From the IMG/VR virus record IMGVR_UViG_2718217789_000003: a stretch of DNA of 64,000 nt, one strand, 5' to 3'. Positions 30,001 to 36,000 of this stretch are shown here, in pieces (position 1 is the first letter of the stretch; every line of letters begins with the position of its first letter). Source of the stretch: a virus. Its lineage: Duplodnaviria > Heunggongvirae > Uroviricota > Caudoviricetes. The position numbers are program-made.

Positions 30001-33000
30001 TTTCGATGACATTTTCTTTCCTCTGGTGACAAGCTATATGGCGAGGATTTTACATGGCTGTGCTTCGTACGTTACCGGGCAGAATCAAAACTCTGAACAC
30101 CCGGCGGGTGAATATTCTGAAGGGTGAACAGCGTCGTGTCAGTGGCAGTGCACGTGTTTCCCTCAAGCGTCATATCTGGCTCAGGGATGCCGGGCAGTGC
30201 TGTCTCTGTGGTCGTGTGGTTGACCTCTGTGACAGTGAACTCGATCACCGAATTGCACTTCAGTTCGGTGGTGGTAATGAGGAGACGAATCTCTGGACGC
30301 TCTGTACCGAATGCCATCGACAAAAGTCTGCTCGTGAAGCGGCGGGTGGTATGCCGGACCCGACGCTGCCGGAGGTGTCCGGAGGTCATGGCAGGGCAGA
30401 CGATATCATCGGACTGTGACCCGCCCCGGGGGGGGGGGGATCATCCGGCGAAAAAAACGATCGCCCTGGACACCGCGCCCCCTCTCACGCAGAGAAAAAA
30501 TTCCCGTTTCAGGGCAGTTAACATGTTAACTGGCTGCCCGGGCATTTTTGCGGTTTTTATCTTTATTATTCAGTTTGTTGTGCGGAAAAAATGTTAACAG
30601 GCTTTTTCAGCAAATGTTAACCAGGCAGCAGTTAACATTTGCGGCATGAGACGCCGGGAAAAATGGGCTGAACCATACCCGGCTGAGTGCGTTCTGGACC
30701 CGGGAGGAGGCTGTGCTGACAACGCAAAAACGAAAATTTGCGCTGGCGCTCATGTCCGGGAAAAACAAAACAGCGTCAGCCCTTGCCGCCGGTTATTCGG
30801 CGAAGACAGCCAGGGTTAAAGGCTCGCAGCTGGCAAAAGATCCGGAGGTGCTTGCGTTTATAGCCCGTAAACAGTGCGAGACGGTGGAGGTGGATGAGGT
30901 TCCTGTTTATCGGCAGAAAAAATCAGAGCCGGAGGATAAACCCCGTCGCCGTGAGGCGGCTGCAATACCACAGCCGGACGAAACAAATCCGGAGATGCCA
31001 CCGCCCGTGGTGATATCTCCTGGTATTGAGTATATGGAGGACGGTCTTCCCGATCCGGTGAAAGCGATGGGGCGTCTTCTGGTGGAGAACATTAATACCG
31101 ACCCCAGGCTGGCGCTGGATGCGGCTTATAAGCTGGCGCAGTTCACGCACCACAAAAAAGGGGATGCCGGTAAAAAATCGGCAAAAGGTGACGCGGCGAA
31201 AAAAGCGGCTAACCGTTTTGCGGTGCCACCACCACCCCGCCTGGTGGTGAATAATGATAATGAGGGCAACGGATGATACCTGTGTGGAGCACGGCCTGCC
31301 CGGACTGGGCAGAGCGCCTGAAAAAGGGGCTGTCGATTATTCCGGCTCCGATTTATCCGGAGCAGGCCGCACATGCCCTGGCGATTTTTAAACAACTGCG
31401 GATTGTGGATGCACCGGGCAGCCCGACGTTCGGGGAGTCCTGCGCACAGTGGGTGTTTGACCTGGTGGCGGCCCTGTTTGGCTCCTACGATGCGCAGACC
31501 GGTGTACGCCATATCAAGGAAGTTTTTATCCTTATCCCCAAGAAAAACAGCAAGTCCACGCTGGCTGCCGGGATCATGATGACGGCGCTGTTACTGAACT
31601 GGCGGCAGGCGGCGGGCTACACCATTCTGGCCCCGACCGTGGAGGTGGCGGCTAACGCCTTCAACCCTGCCAGGGATATGGTACGACGGGACGATGATCT
31701 GGATGACCTCTGTCAGGTGCAGACACATATCCGGACCATCACCCACAGGGTGACGGACACCACCCTGAAGGTGGTGGCTGCCGATCCGAATACGGTATCC
31801 GGTATCAAGTCCGTGGGGACGCTGATTGATGAACTGTGGTTATTTGGCAAGCAGTACAAAGCGGAGGACATGTTACGTGAAGCCATAGGCGGCCTTGCCT
31901 CCCGCCCGGAAGGGTTTGTGGTGTATACGACCACCCAGTCGAATGAGCCGCCAGCCGGGGTGTTCAGACAGAAACTGCAGTACGCCCGGGATGTCCGTGA
32001 CGGCAAAATTCATGATCCGCACTTTCTGCCGGTGATTTTTGAGCATCCTCCTGAAATGGTGGAAAGCGGGGCTCACCTGCTGATGGAAAACCTCGCCATG
32101 GTTAACCCGAATCTCGGTTATTCGGTGGATGAGGCTTTTCTGTACCGGGAGTACCGTAAAGCCCGGGAGGCTGGTGAGGAAGCATTTCGTGGCTTCATGT
32201 CAAAACATGCCAATGTGGAAATTGGTCTTGCCCTGCGTTCTGACCGCTGGGCGGGTGCGGATTTCTGGGAGCAGCAGGGCAGGCGCGTCAGCCTGGACGA
32301 TATCCTGCAGCGCGCTGATGTGGTGACGGTGGGGATTGACGGCGGGGGCCTGGATGATCTGCTGGGAATGTACGTGACTGGCCGTGACAGGGAAACCCGC
32401 GAATGGCTGGGCTGGGGCCATGCCTGGGCGCATGAAACCGCGGTGGTCCGACGGAAGAGCGAGGCGTCCCGGTTTCAGGATCTTGTTGCCTGTGGAGATA
32501 TGACCATTGTCCGGCGTGTCGGGGATGACACGGCGGAAGTGGCGGAATATGTGCGTCGCATTCATGAGGCTGAGTTACTGGACCATATCGGTATTGACCC
32601 GTCAGGGGTGGGGCAGATTCTGGATTCACTGGCGGAAGCCGGGATCCCCGACGGAATTGTGGTGGGGATAAGCCAGGGCTGGAAACTGGGCGGGGCCATT
32701 AAAACCACCGAGCGCAAACTGGCTGAAGGGGTGCTGGTGCATGGTGACCAGCCCCTGATGGCCTGGTGTGTCGGCAATGCCCGGGTGGAGCCTAAAGGTA
32801 ACGCCATTCTTATCACCAAACAGGCCAGTGGACGGGGAAAAATTGACCCGCTGATGGCGCTGTTCAATGCGGTCTCCCTGATGTCCCTTAACCCGGAACC
32901 GAAAAAGAAAGAATATGCGGTTTTTTTCATATAACCCTGTTCACACTGTAACCATCATGAACCGCTGCGGCGGTTTTTTTATTTTCAGGAGGCTGATGTG

Positions 33001-36000
33001 ACTCTTAAACGGGCCTGTTCCCTGCTGACGGTGAAATCCTTCAGTGAGGATGAACGGGTGATCACCGGGATTGCGTCAACGCCTTCTCCGGATCGGGATG
33101 GTGACATCCTGGAGCCGGAGGGCGCGGAGTTTGGCAGTGCGATCCCGTTTCTCTGGCAGCATGACCATTCCCGCCCGGTGGGGCAGTGTACGGTGCGCCG
33201 GGTCAGCGAAGGGCTGGAAATCACGGCAACACTGGTGAAGCCCGTACCGGATATGCCGTCGCAACTGGCTGCCCGGCTGGATGAGGTCTGGGCGGCCATT
33301 AAGACCGGGCTGGTCAGGGGGCTGTCCGTGGGCTTCCGTCCCCATGAATACACCTTTCTGGACGGAGGCGGACTGCATTTTCTGCGCTGGGAACTGATGG
33401 AGGTGTCTGCCGTCACCGTGCCCGCGAATGCGGAATGCACCATCCGGACCATTAAATCTTACGACCGCCCGTTTTCTGCCGCGTCCGGCAACCGGAAACC
33501 GGTGGTGAAAATCGCATCTTCTGCCGGCGCTGCGGCACAGTCAACAACCGTTTTTCATAAGGAAAAGACCATAATGAATATTGGCGAACAGATTAAAAGT
33601 TTTGAAAACAAGCGTGCAGCGCTGGCAGCCTCCCTTGAGGAGGTCATGACCAAAGCCGCAGAGGAAGGGCGCACGCTGGATGTGGAGGAGGAAGAGCATT
33701 ACGACAACACCGCAGCGGAAATCCGTCAGGTGGATGCGCACCTGAAGCGCCTGCGTGAACTGGAAGCCGGTAAGGCCGCCACGGCGCAGCCGGTGAAACA
33801 GGCCGGTAACGGGAATGTGGCCGCGGTGGCTTCTGCGCCGGTGATCCGTGTGGAGCAGAAACTGGATAAGGGGATTGGCTTCGCCCGCTTTGCCAAATCG
33901 CTGGCTGCGGCTAAAGGCGTCCGATCTGAAGCCCTGGAAGTGGCCCGTCGTCAGTATCCGGATGACAGTCGTCTGCATCATGTCCTGAAATCGGCAGTGG
34001 GCGCGGGGACCACCACGGATCCGCAGTGGGCAGGCAGCCTGTCTGAATATCAGGAATACGCACAGGACTTTATTGATTACCTGCGTCCGCAGACCATTAT
34101 CGGGCGATTTGGTCAGGGCGGGATCCCTGCACTTCGTCAGGTGCCATTCAATATCCGTGTGCACGCCCAGGTGTCCGGCGGTGCTGCCGGCTGGGTGGGT
34201 GAGGGTAAGGCAAAACCCCTGACGAAGTTTGATTTTGAATCCATCACCTTCAGTCATGCGAAGGTGTCGGCCATTGCGGTACTGACGGAAGAATTGATCC
34301 GTTTTTCCAGTCCGGCTGCTGATGCACTGGTCCGTAATGCGCTGGCGGAAGCGGTGGTGGCGCGTCTGGATACAGACTTTGTGGACCCGAAAAAAGCCGC
34401 AGTGGCAGATGTCTCCCCGGCGTCCATCACCCATGATGTGAAGGGCACGGCATCAACCGGTAACCCGGATGCGGATGCCGAGGCTGCGTTTGGACAGTTT
34501 GTGGCAGCAAACCTGCAGCCCACCGGTGCGGTCTGGCTGATGTCCAGCACCAATGCCCTGGCACTGTCCATGCGTAAAAATGCGCTGGGTCAGAAGGAAT
34601 ACCCGGACATGACCCTGCTGGGTGGCTCCTTCCAGGGGCTGCCGGTGATTGTCTCCCAGTACGTGGGTGACCAGCTGGTGCTGGTGAATGCCCCGGATAT
34701 TTATCTGGCGGATGACGGCGGCGTGGCAGTGGATATGTCCCGCGAGGCATCACTGGAAATGCAGTCTGAGCCGGGCGGCGACAGTACCACGCCGTCCCCG
34801 GTGGAGCTGGTTTCCATGTTCCAGACAGGCAGCGTGGCCATCCGTGCGGAGCGCTGGATCAACTGGCGTCGTCGCCGTACTGCGGCGGTGGCGGTGATCA
34901 CCGGAGTGAACTACGGCAGTGCGTCCGGCGGCTGAGTCTGATAAGGAGGACGGGAGGCGTGCGCCTCCCGTAACAGGTTATGGCAAAGATCCGATATCTG
35001 CAGGGCACGCATGATGCCCGGGCCGGGGATATCCGTGATGTGGCACAGCCGTGTGCGGAGGTGCTGGTTCGCCTGGGAAAGGCGGAGTACATCACGGTGC
35101 GACGTCCGGCAGGTCAGAAAAAGAAACGTGATGCGGAGCATGGCGAATGTGGAACCTTTTACGGCGAACCCGAAAAAACCAGAAATCAGGACGTGACGTA
35201 AGAGAGGCGGGCTGGACCAGCCTGTTTCAGGCGGTGGCTGAGCCCTTTTCCGGCGCCTGGCAGCAGGGCGTGAAAGCCGATCCTGAAGCCGTCCTCTCCT
35301 TTCATGCGGTGTTTGCATGTATTTCGCTGATATCCCAGGATATCGCCAAAATGCGGCTGCGTCTTATGCAGACGGATGCGCATGGGATACGCAGGGAAAC
35401 GCGCCGGGGGGATATTGCCCGCCTCTGTCGTCGTCCCAACGCCCAGCAGAACCGCATCCAGTTTTTTGAACTGTGGCTGAACGCCAAACTGCGTCATGGC
35501 AATACGGTGGTGCTGAAAATCCGTAATGCCCGGGGGCAGATCAAAGAACTGCGTATTCTGGACTGGAGCCGGGTTGAACCTCTGGTGGCGGATGACGGCG
35601 AGGTGTTCTACCGCATCACGCCGGACCGGAACTGCGGGATCACGGAGGCGGTGACGGTGCCTGCCCGGGAAGTGATCCACGACCGGTTTAACTGTTTTTT
35701 TCATCCGCTTATAGGATTGCCGCCGGTGTATGCCGCCGGGCTGGCGGCCACGCAGGGGCATCATATTCAGGAAAATTCGACGTCTTTTTTCAGAAATGGC
35801 GGCAGGCCGTCCGGGGTGATTGAGATCCCCGGCAGTATTACGGAAGAAAATGCGAAAAAACTGAAGAGCAACTGGGACAGCGGGTATACAGGCGAAAATG
35901 CGGGGAAAACGGCCATTCTGAGCAACGGGGCAAAATACAACCCCACGACGTTTTCACCGGTGGATGCGCAGACGGTGGAACAACTGAAGATGACCGCTGA

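Follow-up and report, generated by a model that had tools for sequence, protein, structure and literature searches.

How is the dose of a prohead protease set in a phage that encodes this enzyme and its major coat protein in one polypeptide? The question is raised by a 64,000-nucleotide (nt) stretch of DNA from a tailed phage (Caudoviricetes; IMG/VR record IMGVR_UViG_2718217789_000003), called the window below. Here a + strand open reading frame (ORF) of 645 amino acids (aa) at 32998..34935 carries protease, linker, scaffold and coat regions one after the other. A sequence-only reading of the window had described a single 645-aa ORF combining protease, scaffold and capsid parts; this description holds and agrees with the GenBank annotation. 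Comparison with relatives suggests that the gene is probably nested, giving a long protease-coat form and a short coat form that would begin at an internal in-frame ATG.

One reading frame for protease, scaffold and coat

The ORF is the head-shell gene of a long-tailed lambdoid Shiga toxin (Stx) prophage. Positions 30700-37800 of the window are 100% identical to the Stx2c Enterobacteria phage 2851 and 96-99.9% identical to many other Stx1a, Stx2a and Stx2c phages of E. coli O157:H7. It is a known, annotated head gene of a published Stx phage, and the fusion itself is not new: the ORF is named 'major head protein/prohead protease' in GenBank and 'phage major capsid protein' in RefSeq, a label that hides the protease part. 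About 95 Stx phage records carry the fusion gene besides the plaque-forming isolate 2851, and the 2.1 kb around it are present in 1255 of 5426 complete E. coli genomes, in up to 7 copies per genome.

Full-length homologues, with identities of 38-78% overall, occur in many genera. Those at 73-78% identity come from Salmonella, Enterobacter, Klebsiella, Serratia, Pantoea, Kosakonia and other genera, and a full scan of 1.8 billion representatives matched 1181 proteins with E<1e-30; among the top 150, the majority are full-length at 38-54% identity. Likewise, aa 1-639 align with positions 7-626 of 626 of PHROG 617, a major head protein family of full-length protease-coat fusions (E 3.3e-261). ORF003 of Pseudomonas phage PAJU2 is a true homologue, 48% identical over its full length, and is recorded as 'structural protein; prohead protease fused capsid protein'. 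Because the gene is carried by isolate 2851, by the Stx phage records and the 1255 E. coli genomes, has full-length homologues in several genera and has a structural-protein record in PAJU2, we conclude that it is functional. A non-functional fusion, created by loss of the stop between protease and coat genes, has next to no probability. Unfused relatives do exist, and in four of them an in-frame stop is all that sets the two genes apart from a fusion, but this model is already contradicted by conservation: the identical fusion recurs in the phages and genomes just listed, 48 of the 65 loci scored below hold intact fusions, and many of the top 150 representative clusters are full length.

Profile evidence places the N-terminal part of the protein (aa 1-157; 32998..33468) in the S78 family of HK97-type prohead proteases. 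Pfam Peptidase_S78 (PF04586) matches aa 48-152 with 34.7 bits (cut-off 21), whereas TIGR01543 reaches 46.4 bits against an equivalog cut-off of 59, so that the protein is a family member and not an NCBI 'equivalog'. An HHpred-type comparison of this half, made with hhalign between a 35-sequence family profile and HK97 gp4, gave a probability of 97% (E 5.6e-11), in keeping with the HK97-protease-like N-terminus of the sequence-only reading. The candidate catalytic residues are H55 (33160-33162), S110 (33325-33327) and E135 (33400-33402). They align with H65, S114 and E141 of gp4, and are invariant in alignments of 35 and 33 sequences that include unfused relatives and gp4 itself; H65 and S114 of gp4 are reportedly catalytic. 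In the AlphaFold2 model of the 645-aa protein (mean predicted local distance difference test score, pLDDT, 74.5), aa 1-155 form a beta-rich domain with pLDDT ~80. A profile search of Protein Data Bank (PDB) sequences with the protease alignment gave no real match, no S78 relative being findable there by sequence, and the Foldseek list for the whole model is taken up by capsid matches.

What the sequence-only reading took for a coiled-coil linker consists of two parts in the AlphaFold2 model. The linker proper, aa 158-192 (33469..33573), is hypervariable and predicted to be disordered (pLDDT ~30), with no conserved columns. The other part is a delta-like scaffold domain (33574..33789) with two long helices, aa 195-222 and 229-262; the match to TIGR01554 sets in here, at aa 204. 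Between these helices and the C-terminal domain, aa 265-285 are again predicted to be disordered.

The coat-protein region runs from about aa 286 to aa 645 (33853..34932). The proposed HK97-fold capsid region is confirmed by Pfam Phage_capsid (PF05065) over aa 386-635 (52.7 bits, cut-off 24.2), by TIGR01554 major_cap_HK97 over aa 204-584 (78.3 bits, cut-off 27.5) and by Foldseek, in which the best PDB matches of the model are the capsids of Bxb1, HK97, D3 and T5 (E 1e-14 to 1e-9). Bxb1 matched at E 2e-14 and the HK97 entries 1ohg, 2fte and 8cfa at E ~1e-10, with target template modelling (TM) scores of 0.6-0.73. A PDB sequence search with the whole protein found only a weak match to the Bxb1 coat protein, and hhalign against HK97 gp5 gave a low-confidence probability of 3%, identity being too low for a significant profile match. 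Mature HK97 gp5 lacks equivalents of four N-terminal helices of the coat region, aa 293-362, which are followed by the HK97-fold core. The maturation cleavage site is predicted somewhere within aa 265-350.

We also compared the residues that form the HK97 chainmail (K169, N356 and E363). K406-P407 (K406 at 34213-34215) and E618 (34849-34851) are present, and the Asn position is occupied by G611 (34828-34830). Asn is found at this position in 223 of 239 family proteins, with Salmonella phage FSL SP-016 as an example of such a relative, and Gly in the E. coli Stx-phage clade (FQTGSVAIRAE). The family motifs that match the cross-link residues, K-P in the E-loop and N-x6-E, correspond to those of HK97 by motif and fold only. 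On these alignments, covalent cross-linking of the HK97 type may have been lost from the clade of E. coli Stx phages. Such cross-linking does not define the HK97-fold family as a whole.

A candidate internal start at the protease/scaffold boundary

Relatives of the fusion gene were examined for gene order and for the state of the protease/coat junction. In 59 loci of species-representative genomes, with gamma-, beta- and alpha-proteobacterial hosts and one Firmicute metagenome-assembled genome (MAG), the order terL-fusion-portal was found in every locus with both neighbours detected, and four closer loci have the same order. Since this order is kept across the relative loci fetched, their comparison marks the position of the coat gene ahead of the portal gene, which the sequence-only reading had pointed out correctly, as a stable trait of the lineage and not a local rearrangement.

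The junction itself is not stable. Among 65 loci scored for it, 48, from many genera, carry intact fusions and 17 are unfused. In all 17, a protease of 182-221 aa with its own stop is followed by a coat gene that starts at the Met equivalent to M193 of the fused protein, giving stand-alone coat proteins of ~465 aa. The two genes lie in different frames in 13 of the 17 and are split only by an in-frame stop in the other four. Because fused and unfused forms interleave on the coat-protein tree, the junction appears to have flipped between fused and separate many times.

The free proteases of ten of the unfused relatives (L047-L052, L056, L058-L060) end in a hydrophobic-basic tail, ...KPFVIRKINx or ...NGAVRLxR, which could be a procapsid-targeting signal. 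We considered whether fused proteins had lost this basic, KPFVIRKI-like tail and rejected the idea, as a degenerate version seems to be kept: remnants stand just before the internal Met, as VFHKEKTI in the window and as GAVKL in L054. A few database proteins join TerL to the protease-coat fusion (P0001, 1079 aa; P0123 and P0132, ~1090 aa); they probably stem from frameshifts or gene-calling errors in the short spacer that separates terL from the coat gene.

In the window, M193 is encoded by an in-frame ATG at 33574..33576, the proposed start of the short form, which the sequence-only reading had not mentioned, and is preceded by the Shine-Dalgarno (SD)-like sequence UAAGGA (33558..33563; dG -6.2), at an aligned spacing of ~8 nt. 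The DNA upstream reads cat-AAGGAa-aagaccata-ATG, and UAAGGA pairs with the 3' end of 16S RNA. An in-frame start with its own ribosome-binding site (RBS) at a domain boundary, the hallmark of nested genes of the lambda C/Nu3 type, is what ATG 33574 and UAAGGA provide. The M193 position, where the first scaffold helix begins, is Met in 33 of 35 family proteins and Val in the other two, while the rest of the linker is unconserved. Likewise, the 22 fused lineages left after manual dereplication on the tree have ATG (19), GTG (two) or TTG (one) as their boundary codon.

We then scored the anti-SD duplex energy upstream of the boundary codon against all other in-frame positions of the same gene. The fused lineages have an SD there, and in most of them it is strong. 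The boundary site ranks in the top 15% of in-frame positions in 17 of the 22 fused lineages and in the top 5% in eight (binomial p 1e-10; Fisher combined p 1e-13). The median energy at the fused boundary is -5.8 kcal/mol, compared with -5.4 at the coat-gene starts of the 17 unfused relatives. Full AGGAGG-type internal sites, at -10.8 to -12.3 kcal/mol, occur in Pseudomonas, Marinobacter, Microvirga and PAJU2. Furthermore, the codon register of the site differs, being AAG/GAA (Lys-Glu) in the window and AAA/GGA (Lys-Gly) in Salmonella and Serratia, and the Enterobacterales clade, with many genera at 70-78% identity, keeps AAGGAAA and ATG where the flanking linker codons differ. The difference in register points to selection on RNA rather than on peptide and suggests that the internal SD is under nucleotide constraint.

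The long form has a strong start of its own. GTG 32998 is the first possible start after a stop, lies 5 nt past AGGAGG (32987..32992; anti-SD duplex energy -10.3 kcal/mol), and aligns exactly with an ATG in relatives; the ORF ends in TGA. The gene may therefore be read in another way, in which all coat subunits are made as the full 645-aa precursor and the internal SD and ATG are an unused relic or are conserved for the peptide they encode. In the window lineage the 5' SD is the stronger of the two (-10.3 vs -6.2 kcal/mol), frequent fusion and fission would be expected to leave relics, and a fully fused head precursor has a precedent in Gifsy-2 (Effantin et al. 2010, as cited in PMC12315714). 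It is harder to explain in this way why a start codon and SD are found in all 22 fused lineages, down to ~40% identity and within an otherwise unconserved linker, why the internal SD equals real coat-gene starts in strength, and why the motif persists in different codon registers and, across the Enterobacterales clade, amid differing flanking codons. We regard a single product as a real possibility, although an unlikely one.

The explanation that we consider best, and fairly probable, comprises two in-frame products, their co-assembly, self-removal of the protease and hairpins that act at the RNA level. The long form, started at GTG 32998, would contain protease, linker, scaffold and coat; the short form, started from the internal RBS (UAAGGA 33558-33563, ATG 33574), would be limited to the last two. 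Using these shared scaffold and coat parts, the two forms would assemble together on the portal. The long form would thereby bring the protease into the procapsid by a covalent tether, replacing a separate targeting interaction. Inside the procapsid the protease would cleave off the scaffold and linker along with itself, so that the mature coat shell remains for DNA packaging. How often one start is used relative to the other, and not transcription, would set the protease dose per capsid.

If fused and unfused genes alike make the coat protein from its own start, flipping between the two states is expected. We think it slightly favoured by the data that the whole family of S78-protease/HK97-coat fusions consists of conserved nested two-start genes with a translationally set protease dose. 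With about the same modest preference, gain or loss of a single stop codon would convert fused into separate genes and back, the internal start working in both states.

Several points weigh against two products. The internal SD of Enterobacterales is moderate (-5.6 to -6.2 kcal/mol), such that 8-15% of in-frame positions match it. The SD of the 5' start is far stronger, at -10.3 kcal/mol, and the long form may dominate or be the sole product. Repeated fusion and fission could mean that some internal SD/ATG pairs are recent relics rather than maintained sites, and the Gifsy-2 precedent points the same way. Limited literature searches on internal initiation in protease-coat fusions returned nothing relevant; the conserved internal start together with fused/unfused flipping, of which these searches gave no description, is the only partly novel element of the analysis.

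Hairpins on both sides of the fusion gene

Just ahead of the gene, between terL and the fusion, stand the hairpin and T-run that the sequence-only reading had noticed. The + strand stem-loop GAACCGC-TGCG-GCGGTTT (32959..32976; dG -10.2 kcal/mol) has a 7-bp stem with 4 G-C pairs, and the T-rich tract T7-A-T4 (32974..32985), 11 T in 12 nt, runs directly into the SD site of the long form. The hairpin keeps its position across genera. In all Enterobacterales relatives, hairpin and T-rich tail lie 17-24 nt (mostly 21-24) before the start codon, the tract is kept as TTTTTTCGTTT or TTTTTTCATTT, and the loops are TTCG, TCCG, CACG or GCAT. The arrangement is also found in Marinobacter, Hydrocarboniphaga, Pseudomonas, Azorhizophilus, Halopseudomonas, a Methylophilaceae MAG and PAJU2, and is absent from the alpha-proteobacterial loci examined. 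Non-enteric relatives (Pseudomonas, Marinobacter) keep the hairpin and the SD spacing, with a degenerate T-run (TCGTCGTTT, TTCTCGTTT).

In an alignment of 18 hairpin sequences, 93.5% of cells are paired and two pairs are compensatory. The core CCCGC/GCGGG is near-invariant, so covariation is modest, 41 of 500 shuffles reaching two such pairs. A generic terminator scan of 12 kb found 16 sites, compared with 10.5 +/- 4.3 in shuffles, and thus no enrichment; the 71-nt intergenic fold was not more stable than shuffles (z -0.28), which leaves the local hairpin as the element of interest. Since neither scan nor fold does better than shuffled sequence, the case for the upstream hairpin rests on its conservation.

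The sequence-only reading had proposed that the hairpin is an attenuator, that is, a partial intrinsic terminator at 32959-32985 that sets the ratio of terminase to capsid transcripts. Q-modified polymerase ignores intrinsic terminators, and late transcription of lambda is terminator-resistant. In the window, the fusion gene lies in the late operon ~11 kb downstream of Q, which is upstream in the same orientation, and by analogy this Q-antiterminated context argues for read-through of the hairpin. The antiterminated operon, and the fact that termination here would lower capsid relative to terminase mRNA, a product needed in hundreds of copies against one needed in few, make the attenuator reading doubtful. 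Its anatomy is admittedly that of a terminator (stem, G-C pairs, dG and T-tract as given above), its position is conserved, and the HK97 record has an analogous 'putative terminator' before gp4. Yet in non-enteric relatives it is the T-run that decays and the hairpin and SD spacing that stay. In three unfused loci (L052, L064 and L065), moreover, the whole hairpin/T-run/SD/ATG module stands immediately ahead of the coat gene, with the protease gene on its other side. From this placement, the module would seem to serve the downstream cistron rather than to throttle it, and we find attenuation improbable.

Alternatively, the hairpin could insulate the lysogen, terminating only unmodified polymerase so as to block stray prophage transcription, for instance from upstream moron promoters, and being read through once Q acts. 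Terminator anatomy and conservation would fit this, as would further + strand terminator-like sites at gene boundaries of the late operon (39228, 44160, 46500, 50069 and 50744). In Stx phages, antitermination at PR' controls late expression, and PR' is constitutively active and terminated in lysogens (PMC7547250). Against insulation, the + strand showed no promoter-like site from terS to the hairpin, and the fixed 17-24 nt spacing to the start, with a U-tract that merges into the SD region, suggests a link to translation. We judge this role unlikely, though not to be dismissed. The lack of a sigma-70-like promoter on the + strand near the gene led us to reject an internal late promoter for it. 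We also dropped the idea that the hairpin is the 3' end of an Hfq-bound prophage small RNA (sRNA) of enterohaemorrhagic E. coli (EHEC), of the EcOnc type. The sRNAs that the text of the paper on them describes map to the moron site just downstream of PR', and its main text makes no mention of head or capsid genes.

A second, GC-rich hairpin without a T-run follows the stop codon (34950..34971, + strand; dG -16.6), between AAGGAGG (34943-34949) and ATG 34980, and a hairpin occupies the same place after the fusion gene in Salmonella, Serratia and Pantoea relatives. In the two-product explanation, the two hairpins bracketing the fusion cistron most likely work at the RNA level while Q-antiterminated polymerase transcribes the late operon. 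They could serve the stability of the segment or, with the U-tract, form a U-rich leader that feeds a strong SD; the upstream hairpin might also stop polymerase that is not antiterminated in the lysogen. A module of hairpin, U-tract, SD and start before coat genes recurs inside antiterminated operons.

The second hairpin also lies within the leader of the next gene, a conserved 73-aa ORF. The SD of this ORF, AAGGAGG, is split from its ATG by the 22-nt hairpin and 8 nt, and its spacing is normal only with the hairpin folded; the layout is the same in Salmonella, Serratia and Pantoea relatives. It resembles the 'split RBS' of T4 genes 25 and 38. Further downstream, two terminator-like hairpins with T-runs (39186-39202 and 39228-39242) lie just before the major tail protein gene. 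In the HK97 record, 'putative terminator' features immediately precede gp4 and immediately follow gp5, and others flank the major tail gene; the tail-gene hairpins of the window mirror these others.

Surrounding genes and comparison with known systems

The fusion gene is flanked by packaging and portal functions on the + strand. Upstream lies terL (31273..32934), the terminase large subunit gene, identified by Pfam TerL_ATPase and TerL_nuclease and annotated terL in phage 2851. Downstream are the 73-aa ORF (34980..35201), annotated as hypothetical and conserved as PHROG 829 (E 3.7e-39), and then the portal gene (35147..37726), which encodes 859 aa with a repeat-bearing C-terminal extension (Pfam Phage_portal, E 5.9e-81; TIGR01537). 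The order is terL, fusion gene, 73-aa ORF, portal gene, and Q, three tRNA genes, stx2c, lysis genes, HNH, terS and terL are co-oriented. The HNH endonuclease gene (30054-30419) stands just 5' of terS, as it does in Salmonella, Serratia and Pantoea relatives; such HNH/terminase pairing is typical of HK97-like packaging modules.

The portal protein has a normal portal domain (aa 45-388) followed by the extension, in which a 162-bp (54-aa) tandem repeat is present in 3.3 copies at 95% identity (36734-37266) and which ends in a weak CBM_5_12-like tail. In Salmonella, Serratia and Pantoea relatives, the portal protein is ~450 aa long and is followed by a separate ORF of 300-350 aa. It appears that a second fusion of genes took place in the E. 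coli lineage.

HK97 is the obvious reference. Like the window, it has an S78 protease with aligned His and Ser, the same coat fold with an N-terminal helical scaffold domain, and terminator-like hairpins that precede the protease gene and follow the coat gene; near its fusion gene the window also has HK97-type portal, adaptor, head-closure and gp10-like genes. In contrast, gp4 and gp5 of HK97 are separate and follow the portal gene, whereas the window has one frame ahead of it. The stretch from M193 to the HK97-equivalent mature N-terminus may be up to ~158 aa, a low-confidence estimate, against 103 aa in HK97. PAJU2 shares with the window the order terL, fusion, small ORFs, portal, the upstream hairpin and an internal site, there AGGAGG-ATG. 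It differs in its host and phage group (Detrevirus) and in having a stronger internal SD (-10.8 kcal/mol); its 5' SD looks weaker by eye (CTGGAGAG; unscored).

Other protease-coat fusions are related in architecture. NCBIfam NF045541, 'prohead protease/major capsid protein fusion protein' (scaf_prot_MCP2), describes the same protease-scaffold-coat arrangement in one gene and is already used in annotation, but for a different lineage: with 54 bits over aa 48-287 only, the window protein falls far short of the cut-off of 525 and on this score does not belong to the family. The head of Gifsy-2 is reportedly built from a wholly fused precursor, with a protease that is said to be ClpP-like and not S78, a lambda-E-like coat and a gene placed after the portal as in lambda. 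As PMC12315714 describes it, citing Effantin et al. 2010, this Salmonella phage's 'tripartite capsid gene' resembles the gene of the window in that protease, central scaffold-like region and coat form one gene of a lambdoid prophage. The two fusions are not homologous in sequence, and no Gifsy-2-type sequence homologues were among the matches of our protein homologue searches. Analogous protease-coat fusions in Gifsy-2 and in actinophages have already been described.

The logic proposed here for two starts is known from genes that make free scaffolds. Lambda C/Nu3 is reportedly nested, and herpesvirus UL26/UL26.5 likewise; in both, a long form contains the protease, a short in-frame form is made from an internal start, and the C-terminal part that they share drives co-assembly. 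The proposed scheme is alike, with the difference that the shared part is a free scaffold in those systems and scaffold plus coat in the window.

Roughly one complete E. coli genome in four carries the fusion gene, as do most long-tailed Stx1a and Stx2c phages. If the internal start is used, these phages would set the ratio of protease to coat protein without a separate protease gene or a targeting signal. The interleaved fused and unfused relatives offer a ready comparative system for the loading of proteases into procapsids.

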